Below, in pieces: positions 1-15,453 of a stretch of 64,000 bases of DNA. This stretch comes from an uncultured Planctomycetaceae bacterium (GTDB lineage: Bacteria > Planctomycetota > Phycisphaerae > SM23-33): positions 182 through 64,181 of the forward strand of contig CAZVYJ010000011.1 in NCBI GenBank assembly GCA_964631565.1, given 5' to 3'. The position numbers and the translations under genes were made by a program. Within the stretch, counting starts at the first letter, position 1. Each line of letters begins with the position of its first letter. The notes below the pieces were generated by a model that made no database searches, was not told where the DNA came from, and was given only the letters and a program-made list of their open reading frames with translations.

Positions 1-2
1 CA

Positions 3-173
3 GACGGTAAATACCAAGTCGAAGGTACGTATCCTAACCTGTCTCTCGGCTATGGTAGCGTCATCGCACCGGTGGCAGCCGGCACATTTGTATATGATGC
101 AGTTCCCGATCCGGCGACACTGGCTCTCTTGAGTATGGGTGGTTTGGGCCTGCTGATTCGACGCAAGCGCTAA
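3..173 (+). CDS. 3' end of a PEP-CTERM-type protein (gene starts left of window); sorting motif reads VPDP instead of VPEP
   Basis: Frame open from base 3: ...FVYDAVPDPATLALLSMGGLGLLIRRKR*; hydrophobic stretch plus basic tail like the five PEP-CTERM tails downstream. Confidence 0.85.
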   Translation, partial: DGKYQVEGTYPNLSLGYGSVIAPVAAGTFVYDAVPDPATLALLSMGGLGLLIRRKR

Positions 174-221
174 AGATACCCGATTTGGGAGTTGAACAAG
201 CTCAGGGTTTCTCCGTGATAT

Positions 222-256
222 GCGGGCTGTCCTCAAGGGCAGCCCGTATTTTTATT
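222..256 (+). terminator. intrinsic terminator
   Basis: GCGGGCTGTCC-TCAA-GGGCAGCCCGT followed by ATTTTTATTT. Confidence 0.7.
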
Positions 257-407
257 TGCCCATCAAAACAATCTTAACTCTTGTTTGAAAGAACAGATAT
301 GTGAAATGGGAGGTGGGCAGGGGGATAGACGCCCAGTCTGATTTCTGGAGACCGGACCATCCGGCGATAAGTGTGAAACCAGGCTATTTTCATTGTTAAC
401 TTCTCTC

Positions 408-436
408 TTGACATTAGCGTCAATACAGGTTATTCT
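408..436 (+). promoter_or_regulatory. sigma70-type promoter of regulator 1
   Basis: TTGACA(408-413)-N17-TATTCT(431-436). Confidence 0.7.
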
Positions 437-485
437 ATCTATTAAGCTAACACATCAGAGTGCTTTTCTGAAAGGCTGTAACGCT

Positions 486-1538
486 TTGGACACTGTGGTT
501 AAGCATAAGAGTATAGTCAAGTCGCTTCGCGGCGATATATTGCGGGGTGTGTACGTTCCCGGCGGTCGCCTGCCGAGTCGCGCCCAGATAAGCCGCACCT
601 ATGGCGCCGGCATGGCGACGGTGCAGAAGGCTTTAGATACTCTTATCGAAGACGGTTTCGTTCATGCGAAAGCCGGGTCGGGCACGTTTGTTGTGGAGCG
701 TCCGCCGCACCTCTGCAATTATGCGATTTCAATACCTGAGGCCGAATTGTGGTCGTGTTATTACGACGCATTCAGGGAAGCCATGGGAGATGTCAGCTCC
801 AGCAAAGACATCGAATTTCGAGAGTATCTTACTTCGCGCGACGTCGCTTCCCGCCAGGGCATCAGGAATCTTTGCAGGGATTCGTCGCACAACAAACTCG
901 CTGGCATCATAGTGAGCGGCGATCCGACAGCCCTGGCGGATACCGGCATATTCAATAATCCCGCTGTTCCCTGCGTGGCGAACCAATTTGCCTACAATGT
1001 TCCATTTCCGAAAACCTGCCTTGATGACGAATCGTTCCTGAATCGCGCGATAGAGTTTCTTTCATCGCGAGGCCGGCGGCGAATAGCGCACCTGTTCATG
1101 GATTTCGAAGCGCGTCACATGGTTGACTTCGAAAACCAGATGAAACGCCTGAACGTGGAAGTCAGGCCTTACTGGGTCCAGTCAGTTCCGATGACCGCAT
1201 TGTTCCGTTCAGTAACGAATGTCGTTCACCTGCTGGTGCAGGCCGAGATGTACGGCGAGCGCCCCGACGCGCTGATTATCCATGACGACAACCTCATCGA
1301 CCATGCCATTGCGGGAATACTGGCAGCCGGCGTTCGCGTGCCGGAGAACATGGATGTCATTGTCAAATTCAACTTCCCGTCGCGTAGACGGAGCCTGCTG
1401 CCGATAACGCGGCTGGGCGTGGATCTGCGCGATCTGCTTAACAGCTGCATCGAAATCCTGGACAAGCAGCGCAATGGCGAGCCTGTCCCGGACAAAACCG
1501 GACTTCCGGCATTATTTGAACACGAGATAAGAAAATAA
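486..1538 (+). CDS. GntR-family regulator with LacI-type (periplasmic-binding-like) effector domain, paralog 1
   Basis: wHTH ...YVPGGRLPSRAQISRTYGAGMATVQKALDTLIEDGFVHAKAGSGTFV; C-terminal RRIAHL, PDALIIHDDNL, GVRVPE motifs. Start moved from 393 to TTG 486 (GTG 495 also possible) because the promoter lies inside the longer ORF and the paralogs start here. Confidence 0.85.
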   Translation: MDTVVKHKSIVKSLRGDILRGVYVPGGRLPSRAQISRTYGAGMATVQKALDTLIEDGFVHAKAGSGTFVVERPPHLCNYAISIPEAELWSCYYDAFREAMGDVSSSKDIEFREYLTSRDVASRQGIRNLCRDSSHNKLAGIIVSGDPTALADTGIFNNPAVPCVANQFAYNVPFPKTCLDDESFLNRAIEFLSSRGRRRIAHLFMDFEARHMVDFENQMKRLNVEVRPYWVQSVPMTALFRSVTNVVHLLVQAEMYGERPDALIIHDDNLIDHAIAGILAAGVRVPENMDVIVKFNFPSRRRSLLPITRLGVDLRDLLNSCIEILDKQRNGEPVPDKTGLPALFEHEIRK

Positions 1539-1616
1539 GGGCACTGTGGCCACTGGAGGCTTAACACGTTTTAGTTAATTTAACTTTTATTCCGGAGATC
1601 GAGAAAGGAGACTTCT

Positions 1617-2354
1617 ATGAGCTTGTTTTTAAGAAGGTTTCTACTGGCAGGTGTTCTGCTAGCCGTGGCGATGCCGGCAGCCGCGGACACTCTAACACTG
1701 AACAGCACATCAACGCTGGATGATGCGTGGTTGTGGGCCGGCGGCGGTGGTGGTGGTGCAGCTAACAAGGAAGGTCTGCAGCTTGAAGCCGCAGCGAGCG
1801 GCTACCTGAAGCATGTCTTTCTGAGGTTCGACCTGTCGGCGATTCCAACCGGTTCGACCATCAACAGCGCAACCTATAACGGCTACTGCAATGGTGCCGG
1901 CACCGGCGGGAGCGACCCGGGCGTGATCAATGTGTACCTGGTTACCAAGCCGTGGGTGGAAGATGAAATCAGCTGGAACAGTTATTCCAGCGGCAATGCA
2001 TGGGTGAATTCCGGCGGCGATGCGGCCGGTCTGAATGATCCGGCCGGCAGCCCGATTTCCACGATTGATCTTCCGCAGATCAGTGCATGGTCAGCCATCA
2101 GTTTTGATCTAACCGCCGCAGTCCAGGCATGGGTGAACGGCACCACAAACAACGGTCTTCTGATGAAGTTTGCGGACGACCTCACTGTGCAGTCAGTCCA
2201 GTGGTGCGGTTCGGAAGCATGGGTTGAAGGTTCGGGTTACCAGCATGTTGCCCCGTCGCTGACTATCGACTACACGATAGTTCCCGAGCCGGCGACCATG
2301 AGTTTGCTGGGTCTTGGCGGGTTTGGGCTGTTAATCCGACGTAAACGCAAATAA
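1617..2354 (+). CDS. secreted PEP-CTERM protein, DNRLRE-like domain
   Basis: AGGAG SD; signal peptide ending PAAA-D; FLRFDLSAIPTGSTINSAT and PWVEDEISWN resemble DNRLRE domains; ends VPEPATMSLLGLGGFGLLIRRKRK. Confidence 0.85.
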   Translation: MSLFLRRFLLAGVLLAVAMPAAADTLTLNSTSTLDDAWLWAGGGGGGAANKEGLQLEAAASGYLKHVFLRFDLSAIPTGSTINSATYNGYCNGAGTGGSDPGVINVYLVTKPWVEDEISWNSYSSGNAWVNSGGDAAGLNDPAGSPISTIDLPQISAWSAISFDLTAAVQAWVNGTTNNGLLMKFADDLTVQSVQWCGSEAWVEGSGYQHVAPSLTIDYTIVPEPATMSLLGLGGFGLLIRRKRK

Positions 2355-2386
2355 GTAAATAAGTTGTGTAAAAGAATGCCGGAAAA

Positions 2387-2410
2387 GCTCAGGATCGGGT
2401 TCCTCTGAGC
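2387..2410 (+). ncRNA. conserved 3'-UTR bulged hairpin motif, copy A
   Basis: GCTCAGGATCGGGTTCCTCTGAGC between PEP-CTERM stop and terminator. Confidence 0.55.
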
Positions 2411-2413
2411 GAG

Positions 2414-2447
2414 GCGGGTCGTCCCCTAAGGGGCGGCCCGCTTTTTT
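2414..2447 (+). terminator. intrinsic terminator
   Basis: GCGGGTCGTCCCC-TAA-GGGGCGGCCCGC-TTTTTT. Confidence 0.85.
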
Positions 2448-2578
2448 GTACTGTCGTTCATGGGGAAAATTACAGCAGGGCATCATCATAATGCAATATT
2501 TTAGAGTAAGTAACAGGCGGAAGAAGGTATTTGCCATAATAACGGGAATAACTATAGGTTTTCGGAGCAGTTTATAAC

Positions 2579-2634
2579 TTGACAGGAGAAAATTTTAAGT
2601 TATTCTATATCTATATTGAACATATCTAGAATAA
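2579..2634 (+). promoter_or_regulatory. sigma70-type promoter of regulator 2 with inverted repeat over the -10
   Basis: TTGACA(2579-2584)-N16-TATTCT(2601-2606); TTATTCTA(2600-2607)...TAGAATAA(2627-2634). Confidence 0.65.
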
Positions 2635-2660
2635 GTATCTGCTGATATCGAGAAAGTCGT

Positions 2661-3716
2661 ATGGCATTATCCGGAAAAGCCAAATATCAGAATGTGGTGT
2701 CCTCACTGAGGGACGGGATAGTTAAAGGCCTGTATCGTCCCGGGCATCAGCTGCCGACCCGTCCTGAGATGGTGGAGAAATTCGGCGTCAGCATTGCGAC
2801 GGTGCAGCGTGCGCTGGATACCTTATCTGACGATGGTTTCATCCGTGCTCGTGCCGGGTCTGGCACGTTTGTTGTTGATCGTCCGCCGCATCTCTGCAAT
2901 TACGCCATATCGATGCCCAAGTCGGGCCAGTGGTCCTGCTTCTTTGATTCGCTCAGAGGGGCCATGAAATGCGTGGGGCAGGACAAAGATATCAATTTCC
3001 GTGAATATATTACTTCGCGTGATGTGGGCGACAGGCAGGGTATAAGCGATCTTTACTCGGATGTGTTCGACAAGAAGCTTGCCGGAATCATTATAACCGG
3101 TGACCCGGCCGACCTGTACGGCACGGGTATTATGGAGAATAAGGCCGTTCCCTGCGTGGCGAACGTATCTACATTTGATGTGCCGTGCCCGAAGGTGTAC
3201 ACGCGTCTGGAAGCTTTTCTGGAGCGGGCGGTGGAATTTCTCGTGTCCCGCGGCCGACGGCGCATCGCGCACCTGTTCATGGACTTCGAAGCGCACCACG
3301 TCGCCGATTTTGAAGACCGCATGAGGCGCATGAATGTTGAAGTCCGGCCTTACTGGATACAGTCGGTCGCCATGTACGCGTTGTTCCGTTCCGCGACGAA
3401 TGTTGTCAATCTGCTGGCGCAGCTTGACGGCGACAAAAAGCCCGACGCCCTGATCATCCATGACGACAACCTTATCGAGCATGCCGTTGCGGGTCTGCTG
3501 GCGGCCGGTGTACGGGTGCCGGAAGAAATGGAAATCGTTGCGATGTTCAACTATCCGTCGCGCACCCACTCTTTGCTGCCCATGACGCGTCTGGGCCTCG
3601 ACATGCGCGAATCGCTGAAAAAAAGCGTCGAAATCCTGGACAAAATGCGCAATGGCGAGCCTGTCCCGGATGGAATCGAACTGAAAGTGAAGTTCGAACA
3701 CGAAATGGAGAAATAA
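2661..3716 (+). CDS. GntR/LacI-type regulator, paralog 2
   Basis: LPTRPEMVEKFGVSIATVQRALDTL wHTH; effector domain very similar to paralog 1. Confidence 0.9.
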   Translation: MALSGKAKYQNVVSSLRDGIVKGLYRPGHQLPTRPEMVEKFGVSIATVQRALDTLSDDGFIRARAGSGTFVVDRPPHLCNYAISMPKSGQWSCFFDSLRGAMKCVGQDKDINFREYITSRDVGDRQGISDLYSDVFDKKLAGIIITGDPADLYGTGIMENKAVPCVANVSTFDVPCPKVYTRLEAFLERAVEFLVSRGRRRIAHLFMDFEAHHVADFEDRMRRMNVEVRPYWIQSVAMYALFRSATNVVNLLAQLDGDKKPDALIIHDDNLIEHAVAGLLAAGVRVPEEMEIVAMFNYPSRTHSLLPMTRLGLDMRESLKKSVEILDKMRNGEPVPDGIELKVKFEHEMEK

Positions 3717-3793: not shown

Positions 3794-4549
3794 ATGAGCT
3801 TGTATTTAAGAAGATTTCTACTGGCAGGCGTTCTGCTAGCCGTGGCGATGCCGGCAGCCGCGGACACACTGGTGCTGGGCGATCCGGCGTGGGCAGGCAC
3901 TCCTGCCGGCGCCATCGACGGCAAAATCGCTGATGCGTGCATGTGGGTCGGATGGGGTGAAGGCATGGGCCTTGGCACCGGCGTTCAGTTTGAAAGCGGC
4001 CCGTCTTATGTCAAGCACGTGCTTTGGTACTTCGACTTGGCCGGTGCGGGTATGCCGATCGGGCCGAACACAGTGATTGACAGCGTGCAGTTCAACGTTT
4101 CCGATGCCGGCGGCGGGCATGTGGCCCAGCCGGAAATCAATCTGTACGCACTGACGAAGGCCTGGACGGAAGCAGGCGAAACCTGGTACACCACGGGAAC
4201 CGGAACGGACTGGTCGACTCCCGGCGTAGGCGCAGGCGACATCATCGAGTCCTCCAAGGTGTCGATTACCACCATTGGAGCTGCCGATGCATGGGCCCGT
4301 TTCGACATTCCGGGCTTCGATTCGCTGATCCAGGCGTGGGCCAACGGCTCGATTACCAATTACGGTGCATTGATGGTGTATGCTGCTGAAGAAGGAGACG
4401 TGACAATGAACATGTGCTCCTCGCAGTATGCCTCGCACGTCAAGCCGTACCTGGTGGTTGAATATCATGTAGTGCCCGAGCCGGCGACTATGAGCCTTCT
4501 GGGCCTTGGCGGCCTGGGTATGCTGATCCGTCGCAAAAGGAGTATATAA
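3794..4549 (+). CDS. secreted PEP-CTERM protein, DNRLRE-like domain
   Basis: ATG 3794 after AGGAG; signal peptide almost identical to the 1617 gene; LWYFDL..VIDSVQF, LYALTKAWTE; VPEPATMSLLGLGGLGMLIRRKR. Confidence 0.85.
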   Translation: MSLYLRRFLLAGVLLAVAMPAAADTLVLGDPAWAGTPAGAIDGKIADACMWVGWGEGMGLGTGVQFESGPSYVKHVLWYFDLAGAGMPIGPNTVIDSVQFNVSDAGGGHVAQPEINLYALTKAWTEAGETWYTTGTGTDWSTPGVGAGDIIESSKVSITTIGAADAWARFDIPGFDSLIQAWANGSITNYGALMVYAAEEGDVTMNMCSSQYASHVKPYLVVEYHVVPEPATMSLLGLGGLGMLIRRKRSI

Positions 4550-4587
4550 GACGACCCCAACGCAGATTCGCAGTAAAAAAGCTTTGC

Positions 4588-4612
4588 GCTCAGAAGAAAG
4601 GTTCCTCTGAGC
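4588..4612 (+). ncRNA. conserved 3'-UTR bulged hairpin motif, copy B
   Basis: GCTCAGAAGAAAGGTTCCTCTGAGC. Confidence 0.55.
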
Positions 4613-4619
4613 AACCGAG

Positions 4620-4650
4620 GTGGCCGTCCCTCAGGGACGGCCGCTTTTTT
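4620..4650 (+). terminator. intrinsic terminator
   Basis: GTGGCCGTCCC-TCA-GGGACGGCCGC-TTTTTT. Confidence 0.85.
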
Positions 4651-4868
4651 ATACCACTATTACAGCATCGGGGTCGATATTCCAATCACCATGGATTTAC
4701 TATTATACAGCTTAAATCAAAAGAGAAATCCGTTTTTTGCAATTCAGTCGAACCCGGTTAACGATAAGAAGGTTTAATCAGCTAATATCAGTCTGCTGAA
4801 GTATTCGTGTGAATCCGGCGGTTCACGTGACGGGAACCCATATTTGAAAAACAAAAGGGAGCGACACG

Positions 4869-6863
4869 ATGAATCGAATCGCGGGAATTCAAGCCGGGAA
4901 GTTCAGACGGGTATCGTGGTATGCTGCCGCAGTCATAATTTTGATAATGGAAAGCGTGGTTATGGCAGGCGACTTGACGCTCAAGTACGATTCCAGCAAA
5001 TATCCTGAATTGAAAATGGGATATAACGACCTTAACGGTGACGGCAAGGCCGATACGCTGATTACCAGATGGAACGACAAAATTATCGCCTTTATCAGCG
5101 ACGGCGGGCAACTGCCGTGGAAGGCGGAGGACGAAAAGCAGGACTGGAACGCCTACTTCAACAAGGCGTACAACGTCGGCCAGGACCCGCCGGTGACATG
5201 GAACCCTGTAAGGGCCAGGTGGGGCGACTATACGATTCTGGTGGACCGCGACGGCGACGGCAGATTTGATTCCATCGGCGACTGGTGCTACAAGACATTC
5301 GACCTCAACAAAGACGGCTCGCCCGAGGCCGAGTACTATCATCTTTTCCCGGGGCACTACAGTAACAAGTTTCACATCAATTTCAGCGGCGAACGGGACA
5401 TGTCGTGGCTGGACTTCGGCGGCTTCTGCTACTGCCCTGACGAGCAGCGATACGTCAACGGCAGCCAGTACATCATGAACGTTCACGGCAACGGAATGTT
5501 CCTCAACAGCTACGCCCGGAATACACAGTGCGCGTGGGAAAATCCCATCGCATGGTATGACTTCGATTTCGACGGCCGAACCAACATGGTCATGCGGGCC
5601 GCGGATACCTTCTACGAGGACGGCAAGGATCACGTTTCCTACAGCGGCTGCCTGAGCGAGCTCGAGCTGGCGTTCGAGCTGAATTCGAACACCAGCGAGA
5701 AACGGTGGCACTCCCTGGACATGCAGTTGACGTTCTTCAACTACGACAGGGGCAAGGGGCTGGATTACAAATCCTTCACCGATGCGCTGGCCTTCATGAC
5801 GGGTCTTAAGGGTTCGGAGTTTCTCTCCGAGAATATGGCCGAGGCGAGGCTGCAGACCGTCCGCAGATATCTTCCTTACATGGACGGCTACAAAATCGGG
5901 ATGGATTTCGACGGCTGGGCCGGCGTATGGCTGCTGTTCGATGAAGACGATGACGACAACCGCTGGGAAGAAATGTTCTCCAGGCACGAGCCGGCCGATT
6001 GGCACGGCTACGCAGACCAAATCGGCGACCGCACCGAGATCGACAGGGACTACGGCGGCAAGGGCAAGCTTTACATCGCCAAATTTGACGGCCGCATTCA
6101 CCTGTTCCATGCGGAATTCGCCGTATGGGATGTCGATTGTCTCGCCATGTATAAGGGTGCGTGCGACAGGGGCGCTACCCCGGAGGGGCCGAACCCGCCG
6201 GCCGGTATTCGATATCCGCGCGTGAGATATTCCGACACCAACGGCAACGGTTTTATCGACAGGATTGAATATATGACCGTCGAATACGGCAAGGAAGGCG
6301 AAACCGAAAAAATCGACCGGGTCGTTTCGCTCCTGGATTACGCGGACGAGAAGAACCCCAAACCGGATGTGTGCGAACTGTTCGATCCTCGCGTGGACAC
6401 GAAAGTAACCGGCTGGACCGTCGCCAAATGGGACGGGAAGCCCTTCACGGCGAAGGATTTCAAGGGTACGCCCGTCAAGGCCGGCTTCGACAGGGTATAC
6501 CAGTTTTACGGCCGGGTCTGCGACGGCATGTGGAGCGACGCCGAAAAACTCTATAAAACCGCCAGGGACCTGGGCCTGAACCGTTCAGAGGACCTGGACA
6601 AGGAACTGAAAGACACGTACACCAAAGATGAACTCGCCGCGCTGAAAGTGCTGGACATACCCAAAGGGTACTCGCGGCACCTTTCCGGCAAGACCAGGCG
6701 GGAAAAATACAACAACGGCTACTGGCTTAAGGAAAAAGTTTTCGCGGACATCCTTGAGTATTCCTCGCTCGACAATCGCACGCTGGAGAAGTATTTTTAC
6801 ACCGGCAGGATCGATGAACTCTGCGAATACGTCAGGGCCAACTACAAGCCGCAGCAGAAATAA
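4869..6863 (+). CDS. hypothetical, probably exported protein with several DxDxDG calcium-binding-like motifs
   Basis: 664 aa ORF with GGGAG SD, signal-like N-terminus, motifs DLNGDGKAD, DRDGDGRFD, DLNKDGSPE, DFDFDGRTN, DTNGNGFID. Confidence 0.75.
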   Translation: MNRIAGIQAGKFRRVSWYAAAVIILIMESVVMAGDLTLKYDSSKYPELKMGYNDLNGDGKADTLITRWNDKIIAFISDGGQLPWKAEDEKQDWNAYFNKAYNVGQDPPVTWNPVRARWGDYTILVDRDGDGRFDSIGDWCYKTFDLNKDGSPEAEYYHLFPGHYSNKFHINFSGERDMSWLDFGGFCYCPDEQRYVNGSQYIMNVHGNGMFLNSYARNTQCAWENPIAWYDFDFDGRTNMVMRAADTFYEDGKDHVSYSGCLSELELAFELNSNTSEKRWHSLDMQLTFFNYDRGKGLDYKSFTDALAFMTGLKGSEFLSENMAEARLQTVRRYLPYMDGYKIGMDFDGWAGVWLLFDEDDDDNRWEEMFSRHEPADWHGYADQIGDRTEIDRDYGGKGKLYIAKFDGRIHLFHAEFAVWDVDCLAMYKGACDRGATPEGPNPPAGIRYPRVRYSDTNGNGFIDRIEYMTVEYGKEGETEKIDRVVSLLDYADEKNPKPDVCELFDPRVDTKVTGWTVAKWDGKPFTAKDFKGTPVKAGFDRVYQFYGRVCDGMWSDAEKLYKTARDLGLNRSEDLDKELKDTYTKDELAALKVLDIPKGYSRHLSGKTRREKYNNGYWLKEKVFADILEYSSLDNRTLEKYFYTGRIDELCEYVRANYKPQQK

Positions 6864-8183: not shown

Positions 8184-8239
8184 TTGACTCATTGCTGGCT
8201 TATGGTAATCTAGATTACATAGTTGGAAATCTAGATTAC
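8184..8239 (+). promoter_or_regulatory. promoter of regulator 3 with tandem palindromic operator
   Basis: TTGACT(8184-8189)-N16-TAATCT(8206-8211); perfect palindrome GTAATCTAGATTAC (8205-8218) and near copy GAAATCTAGATTAC (8226-8239), 21 bp apart. Confidence 0.7.
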
Positions 8240-8274: not shown

Positions 8275-9342
8275 ATGGTAGTAGGTGAAAAAGGTAAATA
8301 TCTGGAAGTCGTTTCCGCTCTGCGCAGCAGCATCCTCGACGGTGTGTACAAGCCAAGCAGCAAACTTCCTACCCGCTCGGAGATGGTGGCGGAGTTTGGT
8401 GTCAGCAACGCCACTATTCAAAGAGCTCTTACCAGGCTGGCGAATGACGGTTTTGTTTTCGCCCGCCCGTCCGGCACGTTTGTTGCGGAGTGCCCGCCGC
8501 ATTTGTGCAACTACGGGATGGTGACTCCCGTCACCTCGCAGTGGTCGCTGCTGCACACAGCCGTTCGCAGGGCGGCCGGCATAGTGCAGAAAGGCGGCGA
8601 TATCCGGTTCAATGAGTACATCACTTCTTCTGAAGTTGCGGCCAGGGAAGATGTGATACGCCTGAACAGGGACGTCACCAGCCATTGTCTCGGCGGGCTG
8701 ATTATCCTGGGCGATTACGCCATGCATGATATTGAAGGCACGCCGGCCCTCGAGCGTAAAAATTTCCCGCGCGTGCGTATACATCCTTTGCCGGAATCTT
8801 CCATTCCTGTTGTTTGCCTGGACGTGACCGGTTCGTTTATTCCGAAAGCGACGGAATACCTGACGTCAAGGGGCCACCGGCGGATTGCACATCTGCGATT
8901 GATTTCAGAAGTCAATTGGCGGAAGGAATTCGATGCGGCCCTGAAAAGGACCGGCATCGAGATCAGGCCGTACTGGGTGCAGTCGGTTTACGCCAGGGCC
9001 ATAGATGAAACGACCACAAGCGTCATATCCCTGCTGATGCAGTTGGAAGGGGACAAGCGCCCCGACGCATTGATAATTCACGACGACAACCTTGTCGAGC
9101 TTGCCGTAGGCGGGCTGCTGGCGGCCGGCGTCAAGGTGCCCGACGACCTGGAAATAGTCGCGCACTCAAACTATCCATCGCAGGCGCCCAGCGTTCTGCC
9201 GATGGCGCGGCTGGGCCTCGACTGCCGCATGTTCCTGAAAAAGTGCGTGGAAGTGATAGAACTGCAGCGCAGCGGACAAACCCCTCCGGCGAAGACGAAT
9301 ATCCCGGCGGTGTTTGAGGACGAACTTGCGGATGAAGTCTGA
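8275..9342 (+). CDS. GntR/LacI-type regulator, paralog 3
   Basis: LPTRSEMVAEFGVSNATIQRALTRL wHTH; RPDALIIHDDNL. Confidence 0.9.
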   Translation: MVVGEKGKYLEVVSALRSSILDGVYKPSSKLPTRSEMVAEFGVSNATIQRALTRLANDGFVFARPSGTFVAECPPHLCNYGMVTPVTSQWSLLHTAVRRAAGIVQKGGDIRFNEYITSSEVAAREDVIRLNRDVTSHCLGGLIILGDYAMHDIEGTPALERKNFPRVRIHPLPESSIPVVCLDVTGSFIPKATEYLTSRGHRRIAHLRLISEVNWRKEFDAALKRTGIEIRPYWVQSVYARAIDETTTSVISLLMQLEGDKRPDALIIHDDNLVELAVGGLLAAGVKVPDDLEIVAHSNYPSQAPSVLPMARLGLDCRMFLKKCVEVIELQRSGQTPPAKTNIPAVFEDELADEV

Positions 9343-9461: not shown

Positions 9462-10616
9462 ATGAGAAGGGTTAATGTTCTATTGGCATTTTTTACAATG
9501 CTGGCTCTGGCTGTTCCGGCGGCTGCCGCGTGGGTCGATAACACTGCGTCCTGGACGGCACAGGGCCTTTCCGGCGGTTTGTTGATCACGGATACCGACA
9601 ACAATACGATGTATAACATCAGCGGCAGCACGATCCGGAGCTACGATGCCGGCACCGACACATGGACGACGCTGACCTCCGCGAGCGGCGGCGGTTACAC
9701 AGGCGAATGGTGTGTGGGTGCTTACGCACAGGGCAAAATCCTGCTGAAAAGCCACAATCACAACTACATCCAGATTTATGACATCGCCACGGACAGCTGG
9801 TCCAACAGCACGCTGCCCAGCACCACTTACAGTTACGGCCACGGCCAGGGTGCGGTTTACAACCCCGCCGACGGCAAGTTCTATACCTTCTGGACTTCCT
9901 ATTCGCCAGGCTACGAGCCTGTAGGAGCCGCATATGATGTGGCGACAGGCACGTGGAGTGCAGACACAGCCTATGCCAATCAGGGGCCGAGGTATCTGTG
10001 GGGCCGCATGCAGTCGGTCACCGTGGGCACCACGAATTACTTCCTGAGAGATGAAAATTATTTTCTTGGCGACAGGAACAGTGGAGATGGAACTATCAGA
10101 CTGGGTTCATATGATTTGACTCAGGGCATTCCGACAGACCAAAGCACCTTGAATTACACCATCCTGTCGTTCGACATGGGCGGTGGTGCGGAACTGCATT
10201 ACAATGGTTTCACTCACCTGGGAGAAACCTACTACTCCGGTGGCGGCGGCTGGCCGGCTGCTTTTTATGACGATGCCGGGGTTGCTTTCGGCACCCAGAT
10301 GATGGCCGTCGATGGTACAGACATCTATATTGTGGGTGAATGTTTCACATGGTGGGGCTGCACCGATCCGCCGGAAGGTAGCGAACATCTTGAGGTTGTC
10401 GTTTATCATACCGCCACAGGCACGTGGGAAAACTTCGAAGACGTGCCGTGGTCCGGAAATGCCTACCGCAACCATACTGTAACGGTTTGCAACGGTGTTC
10501 TGTACGTTCAGGACGGCAGCGAGTTCTATGCCTACAACCTAGTTCCCGAGCCGGCGACTGTGTCGCTGCTGGGCCTCGGCGGTTTGGGACTCCTTATCCG
10601 TCGCAGACACAGATAA
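9462..10616 (+). CDS. secreted PEP-CTERM protein, Kelch-like beta-propeller
   Basis: signal peptide; repeated YDxxTDTW / YDIATDSW / YDVATGTW / YHTATGTW blades; VPEPATVSLLGLGGLGLLIRRRHR. Confidence 0.85.
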   Translation: MRRVNVLLAFFTMLALAVPAAAAWVDNTASWTAQGLSGGLLITDTDNNTMYNISGSTIRSYDAGTDTWTTLTSASGGGYTGEWCVGAYAQGKILLKSHNHNYIQIYDIATDSWSNSTLPSTTYSYGHGQGAVYNPADGKFYTFWTSYSPGYEPVGAAYDVATGTWSADTAYANQGPRYLWGRMQSVTVGTTNYFLRDENYFLGDRNSGDGTIRLGSYDLTQGIPTDQSTLNYTILSFDMGGGAELHYNGFTHLGETYYSGGGGWPAAFYDDAGVAFGTQMMAVDGTDIYIVGECFTWWGCTDPPEGSEHLEVVVYHTATGTWENFEDVPWSGNAYRNHTVTVCNGVLYVQDGSEFYAYNLVPEPATVSLLGLGGLGLLIRRRHR

Positions 10617-10642
10617 ACTGAATATTCTGCAACAGACTTAGT

Positions 10643-10666
10643 GCTCAGAATCGGGTTCCTCTGAGT
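10643..10666 (+). ncRNA. conserved 3'-UTR bulged hairpin motif, copy C
   Basis: GCTCAGAATCGGGTTCCTCTGAGT. Confidence 0.55.
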
Positions 10667-10670
10667 ATGG

Positions 10671-10702
10671 TGTGGCCGTTCTTTACGGGGCGGCCACATT
10701 TT
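10671..10702 (+). terminator. intrinsic terminator
   Basis: TGTGGCCGTTC...GGGCGGCCACA-TTTT. Confidence 0.75.
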
Positions 10703-10750
10703 ATTGCGCGAAATCCCAATTTGTAGGACAATTATCTGAAAACATTCCCC

Positions 10751-10805
10751 TTGACAGCCTTGTAGTTACACATTATTCTATATATCAGAAAGATAAACAG
10801 AATAA
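10751..10805 (+). promoter_or_regulatory. sigma70-type promoter of regulator 4 with inverted repeat
   Basis: TTGACA(10751-10756)-N17-TATTCT(10774-10779); TTATTCT(10773-10779)...AGAATAA(10799-10805). Confidence 0.7.
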
Positions 10806-10820: not shown

Positions 10821-11942
10821 ATGGAACTAACCGGCAAGGCCAAATACGAAGACGTCGTCCACAGATTGCGAAGCGATATTGTGAAAGGCGTTTATTCACC
10901 GGGGAACCGGCTGCCGAATCGATCTGATATCGGCCAGCAGTTCGGCGTGGGGATGGCCACAGTTCAGAAAGCGCTCGACATGCTGACTGAGGATGGTTTT
11001 ATACGTGCGCGGGCCGGAGCTGGAACTTTCGTGGTGGACAACCCGCCGCACCTTTCTGATTACGCGCTGATTATCCCCGCCGCTAGCCTGTGGTCGCGTT
11101 GCTATTCTACATTGCGAGCGGCGGCGACGATTGTCGCCGATGGGGAAAAGGTGAAATTCAAGGAATATAATCCTTCCCGCGATATTGGCAACCGGTCTGA
11201 AATTATCAGATTGTCCAGCGACGTCGTGAATCACAGGCTGGCCGGTATTATCGTTGCGGGTTTCGCCGACGAACTCGTAGGGACGCCGGCCATTGAGATG
11301 CCCGGCATTCCACGCGTGCTTCATCAGCCCATGCCGGGATTTGATTACCCTGTTGTGTGCCTTGACGGTTTTCTGGACAAGGCGACCGAATATCTCAAAT
11401 CTCGCGGCCGGAAACGGGTAGCGCACCTTTGCCTGGATTTTGCATGGACCGAAATAGATGCGTTCATCCAGCAATTGAAACAGAGGCTGGACGACGTCAG
11501 AAATTATTGGGTTCAGCCGCTACGCATAGGTGAGAGATTCCACGGCACCAAGCACGTGGTTGATCTGCTCATGCAACTGGAAGGGGACAAGCGCCCTGAC
11601 TCGCTGATAATCCACGATGACAACTTGGTAGACCAGGCGGTAGCGGGTCTGCTGGCGGGGGGCATAAAAGTACCGGACGAAATAGAGGTCGTAGCCATGG
11701 CGAACTTCCCGTCTTTTCAGCAGTCCGCCTTGCCCATCAAGCGGATCGGCTATGACTTCCGGCAGGTGCTCGAGAAATCGCTCGAAATCATGCAGATGGA
11801 GCGTTCGGGACAGACGCCGCCGAGACTGACGAAACTTACGGCGACGTATGAAGAAGACGTTGACTACGGGCCAGCATATGCAGGGCCTGATGAGTTGGAG
11901 ATGAGAGGCATCATTTTATCTGGACCCAAAACGGGAGAATGA
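10821..11942 (+). CDS. GntR/LacI-type regulator, paralog 4
   Basis: MELTGKAKYEDVV.. start aligns with paralog 2; LPNRSDIGQQFGVGMATVQKAL wHTH. Confidence 0.9.
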   Translation: MELTGKAKYEDVVHRLRSDIVKGVYSPGNRLPNRSDIGQQFGVGMATVQKALDMLTEDGFIRARAGAGTFVVDNPPHLSDYALIIPAASLWSRCYSTLRAAATIVADGEKVKFKEYNPSRDIGNRSEIIRLSSDVVNHRLAGIIVAGFADELVGTPAIEMPGIPRVLHQPMPGFDYPVVCLDGFLDKATEYLKSRGRKRVAHLCLDFAWTEIDAFIQQLKQRLDDVRNYWVQPLRIGERFHGTKHVVDLLMQLEGDKRPDSLIIHDDNLVDQAVAGLLAGGIKVPDEIEVVAMANFPSFQQSALPIKRIGYDFRQVLEKSLEIMQMERSGQTPPRLTKLTATYEEDVDYGPAYAGPDELEMRGIILSGPKTGE

Positions 11943-11954
11943 AAGGAGAAAAAC

Positions 11955-12536
11955 ATGTTCTTGAGATTCAAGAAACCACTGATGCTGTGGTTTGGGCTGG
12001 TTGCCCTGATTGCATTTGTGTCGCCGGCTGGAGCATCGACGCTTATTCCGCAGAGCCAGCTAACCGCGTGGGCGAGCACTCTGTTTGACGGGATATATCC
12101 CGGCTCAAACACGGTTGACGGCAACGTCGGAACAATATGGGCGGCCGGCAACACAGACAATTCGTATCTGCGGATTGACCTCGGCGCTACCTACACTGTT
12201 GATATGTTCACGATCGAAGGCAGGGCTGACAACACAGACCGTCCGAACGCCTTCAAACTGTGGGTAACCGACACGCTGACCGACGGAGATATCACGGGGT
12301 GGACGGACCCGGTGCTGGAATCCAATTTCCTCAGTCAGCAGGCGGTGCAGGAGATTAATTTCACCCCGACTTCCGGCCAGTATATGTATGTGTTGCTGGT
12401 CGGTACCCCTTACAACTACAGCGGCATGTCCAGGGGCTGCATTGCCGAGTTCAACGCTTACCAGGTGCCCGAGCCGGCGACTATGTCACTCCTCGGCCTC
12501 GGCGGCCTGGGACTGTTTATCCGTCGCAGGAAGTAA
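11955..12536 (+). CDS. secreted PEP-CTERM protein, discoidin/F5-8 type C (CBM32-like) domain
   Basis: signal peptide; NTVDGNVGTIW...YLRIDLGATYTVDMFTIEGR is typical of discoidin domains; VPEPATMSLLGLGGLGLFIRRRK. Confidence 0.85.
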   Translation: MFLRFKKPLMLWFGLVALIAFVSPAGASTLIPQSQLTAWASTLFDGIYPGSNTVDGNVGTIWAAGNTDNSYLRIDLGATYTVDMFTIEGRADNTDRPNAFKLWVTDTLTDGDITGWTDPVLESNFLSQQAVQEINFTPTSGQYMYVLLVGTPYNYSGMSRGCIAEFNAYQVPEPATMSLLGLGGLGLFIRRRK

Positions 12537-12554
12537 ATGAGTCTTCTGCTGTTT

Positions 12555-12578
12555 GCTCAGAACCGGGTTCCTCTGAGC
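12555..12578 (+). ncRNA. conserved 3'-UTR bulged hairpin motif, copy D
   Basis: GCTCAGAACCGGGTTCCTCTGAGC. Confidence 0.55.
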
Positions 12579-12587
12579 ATTTTCAAA

Positions 12588-12621
12588 GTGGCCGTTCCGT
12601 TACGGGACGGCCACGTTTTTT
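12588..12621 (+). terminator. intrinsic terminator
   Basis: GTGGCCGTTCCG-TTA-CGGGACGGCCAC-GTTTTTT. Confidence 0.85.
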
Positions 12622-12635
12622 ATCGAATTCCTTAC

Positions 12636-12800: not shown

Positions 12801-12990
12801 TATGCAATTTTACCATCAGCTCGAATATCTGACAGGTTCCATGCTTTTCTGACTGCTGCACTTTGATCCCCCCTCAAAAAAACATGCGGCGCGCAACTCA
12901 TTCTTGATTCAGAGGTTTTGTTCAATGACCTCCCGGGTTTTTAATGCCTGTCATTTTGCACAAAAACGATAGGCACACAAATTTTTCCAA

Positions 12991-13018
12991 TTGACTTTTT
13001 CTAAGAATCAATTATTAT
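12991..13018 (+). promoter_or_regulatory. sigma70-type promoter of regulator 5
   Basis: TTGACT(12991-12996)-N16-TATTAT(13013-13018) in an AT-rich tract. Confidence 0.55.
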
Positions 13019-13047
13019 AAATTAAAGTGTTATTGACTTAGAACATA

Positions 13048-14121
13048 ATGTCAGGAATGTATTCAGTGACACATTCTCCTAGAGCCAAATATCACGATCT
13101 GGCGGCGACACTCAAAAGTGAGATTATTGAGGGTGTGTATTCTCCTGGCCATCGATTGCCTACGAGGCTGCAGATGGTTCAGCAGTATGGTGTGAGCGTT
13201 GCTACGGTGCAGCGGGCTCTCAATACGCTCCTTGACGATGGTTTCATCCGTGCGAAATCGCGAGCGGGGACATTCGTCGTGGACAATCCTCCTCACCTGT
13301 CGAATTTCGGTCTGGTCTTGTCGGCCGAGGGACAGTGGTCGCAATATTACCTGTCGATTCTTGAAGCGGCGAAAATGGTAGGTCTTGAGGAAAATGCTTA
13401 TCTGAAGGCTTATTTTACGTCAAGGCAGGTGGGGTTGCGGCAGGGGCTTGTAAGCTTGTGCGGTGACATATCCAACCACAGGCTTGGCGGGTTGATTATA
13501 GCCACGCCGACTGACAATCTGCATGACACGCCAGTGGTGCAGAAAAAGGATATGCCGCGAGTTCTTTTGTGCCCCTCAAATGAGAATGATATCCCGATTA
13601 TCAAGATAGACATGAATTCCTTCATGGACAAGGCTGTGGAGTATTTTTATTCCCGCGGCCGGCGACGCATCGCACACCTGTGCCTCGATTCGCTGTACAG
13701 GGTTGATAACGAGATAGATGACACGGTTCAGAAGCGGGGTATTGAGTACAGGCCTTACTGGGTGCAACTGGTCGGTTCCGGCCCCACCTTCAGAGGCGTG
13801 GCAAGCGTGGTCAATCTTCTCATGCACCTGGAAGGGGAGAATCGTCCGGATGCCATGCTCATTTACGACGACAACCTTGTCGAACACGTGGTCGGCAGCC
13901 TGATGAAGTTCGGCTTCAAGGTCCCGGACGACCTTGAGATTATCACGATGTGCAACTATCCGTCGCCCGTTTCGAGTCCGCTGCCGGTCAAAGATCTTGG
14001 GCTGGATTGCCGCATGGTTCTCAAAAAAGCCGTCGAGCTTATTGAAATGCAGCGGCTTGGACAGGAAGTGCCGTTAGTGGTTAAAGTGCCGGCCCTCTTT
14101 GATGAAGAAGTTGATCTGTAG
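13048..14121 (+). CDS. GntR/LacI-type regulator, paralog 5
   Basis: LPTRLQMVQQYGVSVATVQRALNTL wHTH; RPDAMLIYDDNL. Confidence 0.9.
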   Translation: MSGMYSVTHSPRAKYHDLAATLKSEIIEGVYSPGHRLPTRLQMVQQYGVSVATVQRALNTLLDDGFIRAKSRAGTFVVDNPPHLSNFGLVLSAEGQWSQYYLSILEAAKMVGLEENAYLKAYFTSRQVGLRQGLVSLCGDISNHRLGGLIIATPTDNLHDTPVVQKKDMPRVLLCPSNENDIPIIKIDMNSFMDKAVEYFYSRGRRRIAHLCLDSLYRVDNEIDDTVQKRGIEYRPYWVQLVGSGPTFRGVASVVNLLMHLEGENRPDAMLIYDDNLVEHVVGSLMKFGFKVPDDLEIITMCNYPSPVSSPLPVKDLGLDCRMVLKKAVELIEMQRLGQEVPLVVKVPALFDEEVDL

Positions 14122-14321
14122 TAATAATCGAGCATCGAACGAGGATGTAGTAATGCAGAAAGGAGGATGGTGATTTTAATTCGAAAGCCGTTCCCATTCA
14201 GAAGGGAAGTTTTGTGAATGTGCTTGTGGAGAATGAGCAGGGGAATCGCATGTAACGAAATTTAGAAATTTAGTGCTTAGCACAATTCATTTCTCTCTGG
14301 AGAAGAAAGGAGCTGTTCATT

Positions 14322-15365
14322 ATGAAAAGATTTAGAATTTTGCTAGGAGTCCTGTCTCTATCGGTGCTAGTTGTGCCGGCAAACGCTGGCTGGACGGAAG
14401 TGACCTCCAGCTGGAACGCCCAGGGTGTTGGAGATGGCTGGGGTCTGGTGTCTGACGGAACCACGCTGTATGCCTTCAACAACACCTCAGCCAAGGTGTA
14501 CGACGCCGCCACCGATACGTGGTCGGCTTTGGCATCGGCAACGAAAACGGTTCATGCTGCCGGCGACTCTAACGGCACGCAGGTTTATTACGACGACGGA
14601 AAGTTTTACTTCAGGACGCACGGCGGCAATGGAAGCTATATCAGCATCTACGATATAGCCAACAATTCGTGGAACCAGCCGGACATCGAACTCGGCAGCT
14701 ACAGCCCGTGTAACTATTCGCAAGGCACGGTTTATGATCCTACAACCGGTACACTGTGGTCGATATGGACGAGTTGGCAGGGCGGTACCGAATACCTCGG
14801 CTACAACTCGTATGACACCACGACCGGAACCTTTGGCACCGCCGCCGGCGGCACATGGGGATCGCCTGACAATTTCTCGGGCAAGATGCGGTTCGGCAAC
14901 AATCGGCCCGGCGTGATTGTCGATCTTGACGGCACCTATTACTACTACAAGCTGTCAGACCAGGGCACAAGTCCGTACATGCAGCGTGTAGCATTCGGCT
15001 GGGATGACCCGACGGAAGCAACGACGGAGACCCTGGCGCAGTTGACCGGCAATAGCACCAGTCTCGGCGACAGCGGCGCATGGGGCACCAGGCAGTTGGC
15101 CGTTTTGGGCACGGACATTTATGTCACCGGTGCTGACACGTCAGGCTTTTTCGCCGTGTATCATTGCGATACCAACGAGTGGGAAATACTCGAGTCCTAT
15201 AACAACGGCAGCGGCGGATATCGTACCCACACCATGGCCATTGCAGACGGCGTAGTTTACGTAGAAGACGGCAGCCAGTTCTTTGCCTACTCGATTCCCG
15301 AGCCGGCAACTATGTCACTCCTCGGTCTCGGTGGTCTCGGCTTGCTTATTCGCCGGAAAAGATAA
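14322..15365 (+). CDS. secreted PEP-CTERM protein, Kelch-like beta-propeller, paralog of 9462-10616
   Basis: AGGAG SD; YDAATDTW, YISIYDIANNSW, YRTHTMAIADGVVYVEDGSQFFAYSIPEP align with the 9462 protein. Confidence 0.85.
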   Translation: MKRFRILLGVLSLSVLVVPANAGWTEVTSSWNAQGVGDGWGLVSDGTTLYAFNNTSAKVYDAATDTWSALASATKTVHAAGDSNGTQVYYDDGKFYFRTHGGNGSYISIYDIANNSWNQPDIELGSYSPCNYSQGTVYDPTTGTLWSIWTSWQGGTEYLGYNSYDTTTGTFGTAAGGTWGSPDNFSGKMRFGNNRPGVIVDLDGTYYYYKLSDQGTSPYMQRVAFGWDDPTEATTETLAQLTGNSTSLGDSGAWGTRQLAVLGTDIYVTGADTSGFFAVYHCDTNEWEILESYNNGSGGYRTHTMAIADGVVYVEDGSQFFAYSIPEPATMSLLGLGGLGLLIRRKR

Positions 15366-15386
15366 GCCATTGTAGACCACATTTTT

Positions 15387-15410
15387 GCTCAGAACCGGGT
15401 TCCTCTGAGC
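15387..15410 (+). ncRNA. conserved 3'-UTR bulged hairpin motif, copy E
   Basis: GCTCAGAACCGGGTTCCTCTGAGC. Confidence 0.55.
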
Positions 15411-15419
15411 ATTTTCAAA

Positions 15420-15453
15420 GTGGCCGTTCCGTTACGGGGCGGCCACGTTTTTT
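15420..15453 (+). terminator. intrinsic terminator
   Basis: GTGGCCGTTCCG-TTA-CGGGGCGGCCAC-GTTTTTT. Confidence 0.85.

Follow-up and report, generated by a model that had tools for sequence, protein, structure and literature searches.

What is the use of a run of genes in which regulator after regulator is followed by one small secreted protein, and does each regulator govern the gene behind it? Such an array occupies the beginning of the DNA analysed here, a stretch of 64,000 nucleotides (the window), whose attribution to Phycisphaerae is upheld by a SecY 70–75% identical to those of Phycisphaerae metagenome-assembled genomes (MAGs). The best reading, which we hold with some confidence, is that the array represents tandemly duplicated regulator–passenger operons that would be ligand-inducible and self-repressed. 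The component parts all belong to known kinds. Their arrangement had not been recognised as a described system in the preliminary description, and a search of the literature likewise found no paper describing regulator/PEP-CTERM modules of this sort.

Layout of the array and its gene products

ORF layout and HMM scans of positions 1–15457 bear out five complete modules and the tail of one more, all built to a common plan (Table 1). A sigma-70-like promoter is followed by a regulator consisting of a GntR winged helix–turn–helix (wHTH) and a LacI-type domain, a protein with a signal peptide and a PEP-CTERM tail, a conserved hairpin, and an intrinsic terminator. The five regulator–passenger pairs all lie on the + strand. 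However, the array is not the unbroken tandem first described, as two unrelated genes (4869–7930), missed at that time, split M2 from M3. The product of the first has no match in Pfam, NCBIfam or PDB sequences; for the second, an iolG-like NCBIfam match falls under the cut-off. The hairpin and terminator of M5 are the last element of the array, after which glmS (15677–17518) follows.

Table 1. Features of the regulator/PEP-CTERM array (M, module; R, regulator; P, passenger)
Feature	Position	Strand	Evidence and remarks
M0 passenger, 3' end	3..173	+	Sixth PEP-CTERM gene, clipped by window edge; translation ends ...VPDPATLALLSMGGLGLLIRRKR*
M0 degenerate hairpin and intrinsic terminator	187..257	+	Covariance model R1 47.6 bits, E 1.3e-11; terminator 220–249
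M1 promoter	408..436	+	TTGACA-17-TATTCT, TTGAC-N6-GTCAA dyad over -35; scan, 10/12 match; dyad by inspection
R1, AraR-type regulator (GntR wHTH + Peripla_BP_3)	486/501-1538	+	Pfam; database gene call P0004, 350 aa
P1, secreted DNRLRE/CBM96 protein, PEP-CTERM anchor	1617..2354	+	NCBIfam, Pfam
M1 hairpin (2387–2410) and terminator (2411–2444)	2380..2451	+	Covariance model 69.6 bits
M2 promoter	2579..2634	+	TTGACA-16-TATTCT; promoter scan
R2, AraR-type regulator	2661..3716	+	Pfam, AF2, Foldseek
P2, secreted DNRLRE protein, PEP-CTERM anchor	3794..4549	+	NCBIfam
M2 hairpin and terminator	4581..4654	+	Covariance model 65.6 bits
664-aa orphan ORF, non-module	4869..6863	+	N-terminal hydrophobic segment; repeated D-x-D/N-G-D motifs
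GFO/IDH/MocA-family oxidoreductase, non-module	6911..7930	+	Pfam 86.9 bits
M3 promoter and two operator copies	8184..8239	+	TTGACT-16-TAATCT (8184–8211)
R3, AraR-type regulator	8275..9342	+	Pfam
P3, secreted Kelch-like protein, PEP-CTERM anchor	9462..10616	+	TIGR02595
M3 hairpin and terminator	10636..10707	+	Covariance model 63 bits
M4 promoter	10751..10805	+	TTGACA-17-TATTCT; promoter scan
R4, AraR-type regulator	10821..11942	+	Pfam; database gene call P0011, 373 aa
P4, secreted F5/8 type C (discoidin) protein, PEP-CTERM anchor	11955..12536	+	Pfam, TIGR02595
M4 hairpin and terminator	12548..12625	+	Covariance model 70.1 bits
M5 promoter	12989..13018	+	TTGACT-16-TATTAT, inverted repeat over -35; promoter scan, repeat search
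R5, AraR-type regulator	13048..14121	+	Pfam
P5, secreted Kelch-like six-blade propeller, PEP-CTERM anchor	14322..15365	+	TIGR02595, AF2, Foldseek
M5 hairpin and terminator	15380..15457	+	Covariance model 71.6 bits

The regulators are AraR-type chimeras, and the type itself is not new. All five exceed the Pfam cut-offs for GntR (53–67 bits; cut-off 27 bits) and Peripla_BP_3 (32–54 bits; cut-off 26.5 bits), as the earlier call of a GntR and a LacI-type domain had it; R1 scores 53.5 and 50.7 bits and R2 67 and 54.5 bits, respectively. Pairwise identity among them is 43–62%, the upper value being that of R1 and R2. The AF2 model of R2 (pLDDT 92.1) finds its best Foldseek matches in the cores of CcpA, LacI and RbsR, and among the PDB sequence matches of the regulators are LacI cores as well as 4egy, the DNA-binding domain of AraR.

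The PEP-CTERM assignment holds for all five passengers, which clear the TIGR02595 cut-off of 16 bits with 23–27 bits. P1 and P2 are DNRLRE proteins, as had been noted (73.6 and 51.1 bits; cut-off 34 bits), with TIGR02595 scores of 27 and 26.7 bits; P1 also matches Pfam CBM96 (35.1 bits). A start of P2 at GTG 3725 was rejected in favour of ATG 3794, with a leader and signal peptide homologous to those of P1. The discoidin-like character of P4 is likewise confirmed (F5_F8_type_C 53.6 bits, cut-off 28.2 bits; TIGR02595 27 bits). P3 and P5 (TIGR02595 25.4 and 23.2 bits), ~34% identical to each other, had both been called Kelch-like. The fold of P5 agrees, its AF2 model (pLDDT 76) matching Kelch six-blade propellers in Foldseek (prob 1.0, TM ~0.5), but HMM scans match Kelch models to either protein below threshold only. 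No further PEP-CTERM gene and no exosortase was seen in the examined parts of the window.

Promoters, operators and the terminal hairpin

The promoter scan detects TTGAC(A/T)-16/17-TATTCT/TATTAT promoters at 408, 2579, 10751 and 12991. None of the window modules is preceded by a sigma-54 -24/-12 motif, so that control of the PrsK/PrsR type is not indicated. Dyad repeats overlap the core promoters of M2 to M5 and differ between the paralogous modules, although chance alone yields short repeats in AT-rich promoters. In M2, the inverted repeat TTATTCTATAT/ATCTAGAATAA (2600–2634) spans the -10 and start region; M4 has TTATTCTATATATC/GATAAACAGAATAA (10773–10805) and M5 AATTGACTTTT/AAGAATCAATT. The dyad of M1 was noted by inspection alone, the repeat tool having detected none there. 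M3 carries two copies of the palindromic putative operator GTAATCTAGATTAC (8205–8218 and 8226–8239), which agrees with the GntR signature GT-N-AC. Their spacing of 21 nt places them two helical turns apart. Upstream of a 76%-identical orthologue of R3 (L041_R2), this operator is the best-conserved block, the remaining spacer having diverged. A module-specific dyad over each promoter and an operator kept in an orthologue are consistent with each promoter being controlled by the regulator of the same module, which agrees, as far as sequence can tell, with the dedicated regulators proposed previously.

The gaps between regulator and passenger measure 12–200 nt, M4 having the shortest, and the typical ~80–200 nt is long for an operon junction, which counts against coupling. 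Each module has one terminator, 3' of the passenger. A strong Shine–Dalgarno (SD) sequence precedes every passenger gene (GAAAGGAG in P1) and no regulator gene. The 200-nt gap between R5 and P5 contains weak terminator-like and promoter-like matches (two of the latter, each 9/12, at 14058–14128), and coupling is therefore least certain at M5. The claim that no terminator separates regulator from passenger thus stands for strong terminators, which the gaps lack, and is weakened by the match in M5.

The 64 kb contain exactly five copies of the hairpin GCTCAG-N-TTCCTCTGAG, the expected number being 0.00. Every one lies 18–38 nt past a passenger stop codon and immediately before a GC-hairpin/T-run terminator; with the degenerate sixth at M0, this corroborates the hairpin and terminator described for every module. 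Across 514 kb, high-scoring covariance-model matches are confined to module ends. The hairpin is under selection: identity among modules is 94%, compared with 50% at adjacent synonymous sites (third codon positions). One-sided stem changes yield G·U on the sense strand in 7/7 cases and are compatible on that strand only, which, together with a length of ~24 nt, points to RNA.

The whole scheme, which we rate as fairly probable from these sequence features, may be outlined as follows. Each of the tandem-duplicated small operons would be transcribed from its sigma-70-type promoter and be under its own repressor. The first gene, with a weak ribosome-binding site, would encode this one-component repressor of AraR type, in which a GntR winged-helix domain is joined to a small-molecule-binding domain of LacI/GalR type. 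As a dimer, the repressor would bind the module-specific dyad operators, which overlap the -35 or -10 element or the start of the transcript, and shut off regulator and passenger genes alike, until a small molecule in the cytoplasm, most probably a sugar or a derivative of one, released it. Transcription would then continue through the regulator into the passenger gene with its strong ribosome-binding site. The passenger, a lectin-like or CBM-like protein that may bind glycans, would be exported by Sec and sorted via its PEP-CTERM tail to the cell envelope by an exosortase encoded elsewhere. The transcript would terminate at the RNA hairpin and intrinsic terminator, thereby insulating the next module.

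Conservation in relatives and alternative explanations

Six contigs with 11 regulators (L038, L039, L041, L044, L045 and L167) were compared. The regulator–PEP-CTERM pairing, on whose conservation the proposal had been staked beforehand, is kept: a small secreted protein comes next in 11/11 cases, with PEP-CTERM in ten and a contig end cutting the other. At ≥42% identity, window and relatives together thus give 16/16 regulators directly followed by such a protein (5 and 11, respectively), 15 with a verified PEP-CTERM tail, in invariant gene order and orientation. At least two consecutive modules are found in L038, L041 and L045. The 1:1 ratio is not strict, because one L041 module carries two PEP-CTERM passengers and contig L168 has Kelch-type PEP-CTERM genes without a regulator. 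Modules turn over fast among relatives, and syntenic array ends hold different ones. L167 and L038 share flanks of ~80% identity, but the adjoining module differs, with 42%-identical regulators and unrelated passengers. R3 and L041_R2 also precede unrelated passengers, a Kelch protein and a 283-aa protein, respectively. Sensing and passenger function may therefore not be matched; of the formula "sense one ligand, display one protein", the pairing survives, whereas a matched ligand and passenger has become doubtful.

Different passengers behind orthologous regulators would also suit regulators that chiefly control carbohydrate-utilisation genes elsewhere, the PEP-CTERM gene being a small regulon member or hitch-hiker and the array having arisen incidentally as regulator genes were duplicated in tandem. 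Distant relatives (27–40% identity) indeed precede giant CBM9 proteins, GDSL and BD-FAE esterases, GFO/IDH/MocA oxidoreductases or prepilin-type DUF1559 proteins, and some stand divergent to catabolic genes. This explanation is nevertheless unlikely in view of the 16/16 pairing at closer range and of the M3 operator, which has no other occurrence within the 64-kb window.

Even less probable is that passenger transcription is independent, either constitutive or governed by a global regulator, and that adjacency merely reflects the duplication unit. PEP-CTERM genes mostly form single-gene operons with long upstream regions (Haft et al. 2006, PMC1569441), promoters could hide in gaps of ~100 nt, and the regulator-less L168 genes have TTGACA promoters of their own. 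However, the scan finds no sigma-70-like match in the window gaps, M5 excepted, and the relatives' gaps show no promoter by eye. The missing sigma-54 motifs, the M4 genes just 12 nt apart and the fixed order and orientation also speak against it, and the two regulator-less L168 genes lack the module hairpin (one weak 19.7-bit match, the other none).

That the array serves mainly for cassette exchange or diversification, with signal peptide, PEP-CTERM tail and hairpin as recombination sites for swapping passenger domains and the hairpin acting as DNA like integron attC, is very unlikely: the rapid turnover, the duplicated pieces of PEP-CTERM coding tail 3' of the L045 passenger gene and the near-identical signal peptides of P1 and P2 (41% identical overall) favour it, but the scanned window ORFs match no integrase or recombinase family, the short hairpin suggests RNA, and saturated synonymous sites in the PEP tail exclude recent gene conversion.

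Comparison with known systems

The duplicated, self-repressed operons favoured here resemble several known systems in part. The effector domains share the fold of LacI, CcpA and RbsR (Foldseek TM to target 0.6–0.75). In a weak alignment (hhalign probability 62.5%), a DDN segment coincides with the inducer-contact segment around N246 of LacI, and the variable residue preceding a conserved N-Y/F-P-S segment with D274. Unlike the LacI family, with its LacI HTH and hinge helix, the window regulators bear a GntR wHTH.

This chimeric build, GntR wHTH plus LacI/GalR effector domain, is that of AraR of Bacillus subtilis, which binds paired, properly spaced operators cooperatively (PMC1950556). Both have palindromic GT-N-AC operators in properly spaced pairs (here predicted, at M3) and operators at the regulator's own promoter (here likewise predicted), which implies autoregulation. 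However, sequence similarity does not indicate orthology, and the window operators are unlike ATTTGTACGTACAAAT. AraR targets catabolic and transport genes, whereas the presumed target here is one exported, lectin-like PEP-CTERM protein, and the window holds at least five tandem paralogues.

In other PVC bacteria, the genes adjoining each regulator were read. In MAGs of Lentisphaerales, Tepidisphaerales, Phycisphaeraceae, Verrucomicrobiota and Kiritimatiellia, the gene immediately following a regulator of the same family (27–40% identity) codes for a protein that is secreted, envelope-associated or carbohydrate-active. There, the partners are prepilin-type (N_methyl/SBP_bac_10, DUF1559) or giant CBM9 proteins, the loci often run into long operons, and the GCTCAG hairpin is absent.

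The passengers, small, diverse, paralogous and secreted, with signal peptide and PEP-CTERM tail, are typical of PEP-CTERM/exosortase systems (PMC1569441). Regulators of such genes outside Proteobacteria were still to be found according to Haft et al. 2006 (PMC1569441). In Proteobacteria, one global two-component system, PrsK/PrsR/PrsT with sigma-54, serves many single-gene PEP-CTERM operons (same reference), whereas each passenger gene of the window follows its own one-component regulator and a sigma-70-like promoter.

Array layout and encoded proteins

Positions 1-15457 of the window, on the forward strand, hold the end of one PEP-CTERM gene followed by five pairs of a regulator gene and a passenger gene, each pair forming a module (M1-M5) of about 2.2 kb. 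The left-edge remnant, M0, retains the final 57 codons of its PEP-CTERM gene, with a translated tail that reads VPDPAT...RRKR. The preliminary description of this region as a tandem array is correct as to the five pairs and the tail of a sixth, but two genes split M2 from M3. The first is an orphan ORF with a hydrophobic N-terminal segment and repeated, calcium-binding-like D-x-D/N-G-D motifs, for which Pfam, NCBIfam and PDB sequences gave no match. The second encodes a GFO/IDH/MocA oxidoreductase; such an enzyme also stands directly after the regulator in a distant relative (L029).

Features of the regulator/PEP-CTERM array in window coordinates (R, regulator; P, passenger)
Feature	Positions	Strand	Basis
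M1, R1	486/501-1538	+	ORF calls
M1, P1	1617-2354	+	ORF calls
M2, R2	2661-3716	+	ORF calls
M2, P2	3794-4549	+	ORF calls
664-aa orphan ORF, between M2 and M3	4869-6863	+	ORF and domain scans
GFO/IDH/MocA oxidoreductase, after the 664-aa ORF	6911-7930	+	domain scan
M3, R3	8275-9342	+	ORF calls
M3, P3	9462-10616	+	ORF calls
M4, R4	10821-11942	+	ORF calls
M4, P4	11955-12536	+	ORF calls
M5, R5	13048-14121	+	ORF calls
M5, P5	14322-15365	+	ORF calls
M1 dyad, short TTGAC-N6-GTCAA			by eye only
M2 dyad	2600-2634		repeat search
M3 candidate operator, perfect palindrome GTAATCTAGATTAC twice, 21 nt apart, first copy on the -10			repeat search
M4 dyad	10773-10805		repeat search
M5 dyad, over the -35	12989-13013		repeat search

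Downstream of M5, glmS follows from 15677, and the 64-kb window holds no further PEP-CTERM ORFs beyond the array. Its remainder carries housekeeping genes (glmS, MATE, EF-Tu, EF-G, SecY), and large ORFs there presumably represent rpoB/rpoC and a cluster of ribosomal-protein genes. The window SecY is 70-75% identical to that of Phycisphaerae MAGs, which assigns the organism to Phycisphaerae. The G+C content is 52-56% over the array (1-16000) and mostly 56-65% over 16001-64000; the low value of the array fits fast turnover or a separate history. Unrelated to the array, the genes at 19742-24779 (+) encode a UbiA prenyltransferase, a type I phosphodiesterase, an enzyme resembling 3-dehydroquinate synthase (sugar-phosphate-cyclase-like) and a TIM-barrel protein with a weak match to xylose isomerase, and may form a small biosynthetic cluster.

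The five regulators are paralogues with 43-62% pairwise identity. Their assignment as GntR plus LacI-type proteins holds for all five in the HMM scan, with 53-67 bits for GntR (PF00392, cut-off 27) and 32-54 bits for Peripla_BP_3 (PF13377, cut-off 26.5). In the AF2 model of R2 (pLDDT 92.1), the effector part superposes on the LacI, CcpA and RbsR cores, and the best 50 Foldseek matches are all LacI-family cores. Sequence-profile hits in the PDB included LacI cores and, from the GntR family, the DNA-binding domains of YvoA and AraR (4egy). Judged by sequence and predicted structure, R1-R5 share the chimeric organisation of B. subtilis AraR, a GntR/LacI-type chimera (PMC1950556). A weak profile alignment with LacI (62.5% probability) places a near-invariant D268-D269-N270 opposite LacI A-N246-D and a paralogue-variable position (F/F/S/A/C) opposite LacI D274. 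This is only a hint that the effector pocket is kept and that specificity may have diverged between the paralogues. An Rfam match to the c-di-GMP-I-GGC riboswitch within the R2 coding sequence, at 2670-2759 (+), is sub-threshold (25.7 bits vs gathering 59, E 0.021) and intragenic, and is most likely due to chance.

All five passengers pass the PEP-CTERM models TIGR02595 (23-27 bits, cut-off 16) and PF07589 (24-34 bits, cut-off 20.7), in line with the initial reading. Inspection of the translations suggests that P1-P5 also carry an N-terminal signal peptide, with hydrophobic N-termini and A-x-A-like ends (e.g. ...AMPAAA/DTL and ...VVPANA/GWT). No exosortase (EpsH/Xrt) was found among the window ORFs examined, the source contig being 66.9 kb long. 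The domain assignments made at first sight were borne out for P1 and P2 as DNRLRE proteins (NF033679, 73.6 and 51.1 bits, cut-off 34; P1 also matches CBM96) and for P4 as discoidin-like (F5/8 type C, PF00754, 53.6 bits, cut-off 28.2). The Kelch-like nature proposed for P3 and P5 is supported in part: both remain below the Pfam Kelch cut-offs (29.8 bits vs 70), but the AF2 model of P5 (10-sequence alignment, pLDDT 76) matches Kelch propellers with a Foldseek probability of 1.0 and a TM-score of only 0.45-0.55.

Promoters, candidate operators and gene coupling

The promoter motif TTGAC(A/T)-16/17-TAnnnT precedes each of the five window regulator genes, as had been noted, and recurs in at least 7 of the 10 complete regulator genes examined in relatives. 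Sigma-54 promoters were rejected: the motif TGGCAC-N5-TTGCW, with up to two mismatches, has 20 matches vs 31.6 expected, and those inside the array all lie within coding sequence. Dyad repeats overlap the core promoters and differ between modules. Those of M2, M4 and M5 have no clean GT..AC, and the repeat search of the M1 promoter returned none. The M3 palindrome GTAATCTAGATTAC agrees with the GntR signature GT-N-AC and has no further copy anywhere in the 64-kb window. Upstream of the orthologue of R3 in relative L041 (L041_R2, 76% identical), it is the best-kept block, and the spacer around it has diverged.

The regulator-passenger gaps of M1-M5 measure 78, 77, 119, 12 and 200 nt and are purine-rich. 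The scan found no T-run terminator in them apart from one weak match in that of M5; the earlier claim that regulator and passenger are not separated by a terminator stands for M1-M4 and is less clear for M5. A strong GAAAGGAG Shine-Dalgarno sequence is present before every passenger gene and before none of the regulator genes, and each module has one terminator, located 3' of the passenger. Since the gaps are terminator-poor, the passengers have their own Shine-Dalgarno sequences and the single terminator follows the passenger, co-transcription of the two genes is likely. The M5 gap (14122-14321, 200 nt) contains a passenger-type RBS (cagaaaggagg) followed by a 16-codon mini-ORF, as well as a weak hairpin/T-run at 14191-14208. 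This stretch may be what is left of a passenger gene that was replaced, or may encode a leader peptide.

The hairpin at the module ends

Each passenger stop codon is followed, after 18-38 nt and directly before the terminator, by a hairpin of the form GCTCAGA-loop(...GGTTCC)-TCTGAGC. This pattern has five exact matches in the 64-kb window, where 0 are expected. A covariance model trained on 13 copies was run on 514 kb, comprising the window plus loci, and all of its high-scoring matches (47-79 bits) fall at module ends. Two of them, at 2162-2237 in L167 and 41-111 in L038 (both contigs of related genomes), lie outside the training set.

Among the window modules, the hairpin is 94% identical. 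Gene conversion was considered as the cause and rejected, given that the adjacent PEP-CTERM tail, although conserved as protein, is only 50% identical at third codon positions. Because these neighbouring positions have diverged and the stop-to-hairpin spacers are unalignable between modules, the conservation of the hairpin reflects selection and not recent duplication. All seven one-sided stem changes (7/7) yield G·U on the sense strand, and this compatibility points to an RNA element of the module transcript. As candidate roles, the element may protect the 3' end or mark it for processing, bind a protein, or help to insulate one module from the next.

Rfam 15 has no family for the hairpin, and the search at E<=1 gave two sub-threshold matches in total. 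The match to sbrA over the M1 hairpin (2384-2446) was dismissed at 23.4 bits vs gathering 45 and E 0.51. The metagenome-wide pattern GCTCAGN{4,8}GGTTCCTCTGRG occurs at 120 loci, which are regarded as chance matches because no PEP-CTERM ORF precedes any of them. Pairing of the loop (GGTTCC) with the purine-rich regulator-passenger spacers or with the passenger Shine-Dalgarno sequence, assessed by eye, is inconsistent across modules and was discarded for that reason; a 9-nt loop complement is present in one L038 spacer.

A separate structured region lies between the M4 terminator and the M5 promoter, where five consecutive strong GC-rich hairpins occupy about 170 nt (12640-12800, +). Its RNA MFE is -106.9 kcal/mol vs -62.5 +/- 4.9 for shuffles (z = -9.0), and it has no Rfam match. 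Either a structured small RNA or clustered palindromic repeats could account for it.

Modules in relatives and known systems

R2 homologues of at least 42% identity are few, forming about 40 clusters in 5.8 billion, and every readable context of these homologues has the same layout. The expected pairing of regulator and PEP-CTERM protein is kept in the related contigs L038 (four modules and the 3' end of a fifth), L041 (three, the last passenger being cut by the contig end), L039 (one, with a Kelch passenger), L044 (one), L045 (one, plus an upstream PEP-CTERM tail) and L167 (one). The proposed 1:1 ratio is the usual one, but one L041 module has two PEP-CTERM passengers, an F5/8 type C protein and a SASA-family esterase. 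Passenger domains in relatives include Laminin_G_3, HpiC1-like, DNRLRE, F5/8 type C, Kelch-like and unknown folds, a range that fits carbohydrate binding but is no proof of it.

The pairing is conserved, its content is not. R3 and its 76%-identical L041 orthologue are followed by unrelated passengers. Between L167 and L038, flanking genes are about 80% identical, but the adjacent modules differ, with 42% identity between the regulators and no relationship between the passengers. The P5 family has 10 members in the protein database, and a P5 orthologue at 75% identity exists. In L045 (2360-2450 and 1-80), two partial copies of the DNA coding for a PEP-CTERM tail (ctcggtctgggcggtctgggtctgctcttgagacggcgta...) stand after the passenger gene, and their sequence corresponds to the tail in the module upstream. 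These duplicated scraps look like scars of inter-module recombination. L168, from a related genome, carries two Kelch-type PEP-CTERM genes without a regulator (1-330 and 1419-1871). Each has a TTGACA-type promoter and a long leader of about 250 nt, and ends in an ordinary terminator that lacks the module hairpin.

At 27-40% identity, the regulator family extends across PVC MAGs of Lentisphaerales, Tepidisphaerales, Phycisphaeraceae, Verrucomicrobiota and Kiritimatiellia. The next downstream gene often encodes a prepilin-type N_methyl/SBP_bac_10 (DUF1559) protein, a PEP-CTERM protein, a CBM9 protein of 1300-1400 aa, an esterase or a GFO/IDH/MocA oxidoreductase. The window modules look like a pared-down, locally amplified form of this PVC-wide theme of an AraR-like regulator placed before a secreted, carbohydrate-related protein. 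Placing such a regulator before a prepilin-like, PEP-CTERM or CBM secreted protein may be a general principle of substrate capture in PVC phyla.

The best-supported reading is that the modules are ligand-inducible, negatively autoregulated two-gene operons. Each would have its own AraR-type repressor and candidate operator and would yield one exosortase-sorted, lectin-like protein. In this reading, every PEP-CTERM gene of the array has a repressor to itself, which probably responds to a sugar, and an operator that can be recognised. Every component is of a known class; the hairpin and the rapid turnover of passengers are the least ordinary. A bolder proposal, which is considered improbable, sees lineage-specific, fast-diversifying, ligand-gated surface-lectin switches, whose passengers are exchanged behind conserved regulators and whose 3' hairpin is a common post-transcriptional handle. 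Acting, e.g., as a site for an RNA-binding protein or for processing, or as the body of 3'UTR-derived small RNAs, this handle would coordinate the transcripts of all modules or stabilise them. If true, PEP-CTERM proteins outside Proteobacteria would have a second level of regulation.

Ligand screens on five to ten of these small regulators could tell which substrates lead to display of which lectin-like protein in this uncultured, polysaccharide-degrading group. The modules may also serve as inducible expression parts, since they are compact and self-contained and their operators are mutually distinct. Their conserved 3' hairpin may represent a new cis-acting RNA element.

No description of the regulator-PEP-CTERM pairing, the arrays or the hairpin was found in the open-access literature, which agrees with the preliminary description and is not proof of absence. 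According to Haft et al. 2006, PEP-CTERM function and its regulation outside Proteobacteria are largely open (PMC1569441). The proposed control would work like AraR/LacI repression, and the paired, in-phase palindromes of M3 recall the cooperative boxes of AraR (PMC1950556). The only described control system for PEP-CTERM proteins, PrsK/PrsR, is a global sigma-54 circuit of Proteobacteria (PMC1569441), whereas the window modules have no sigma-54 motif.
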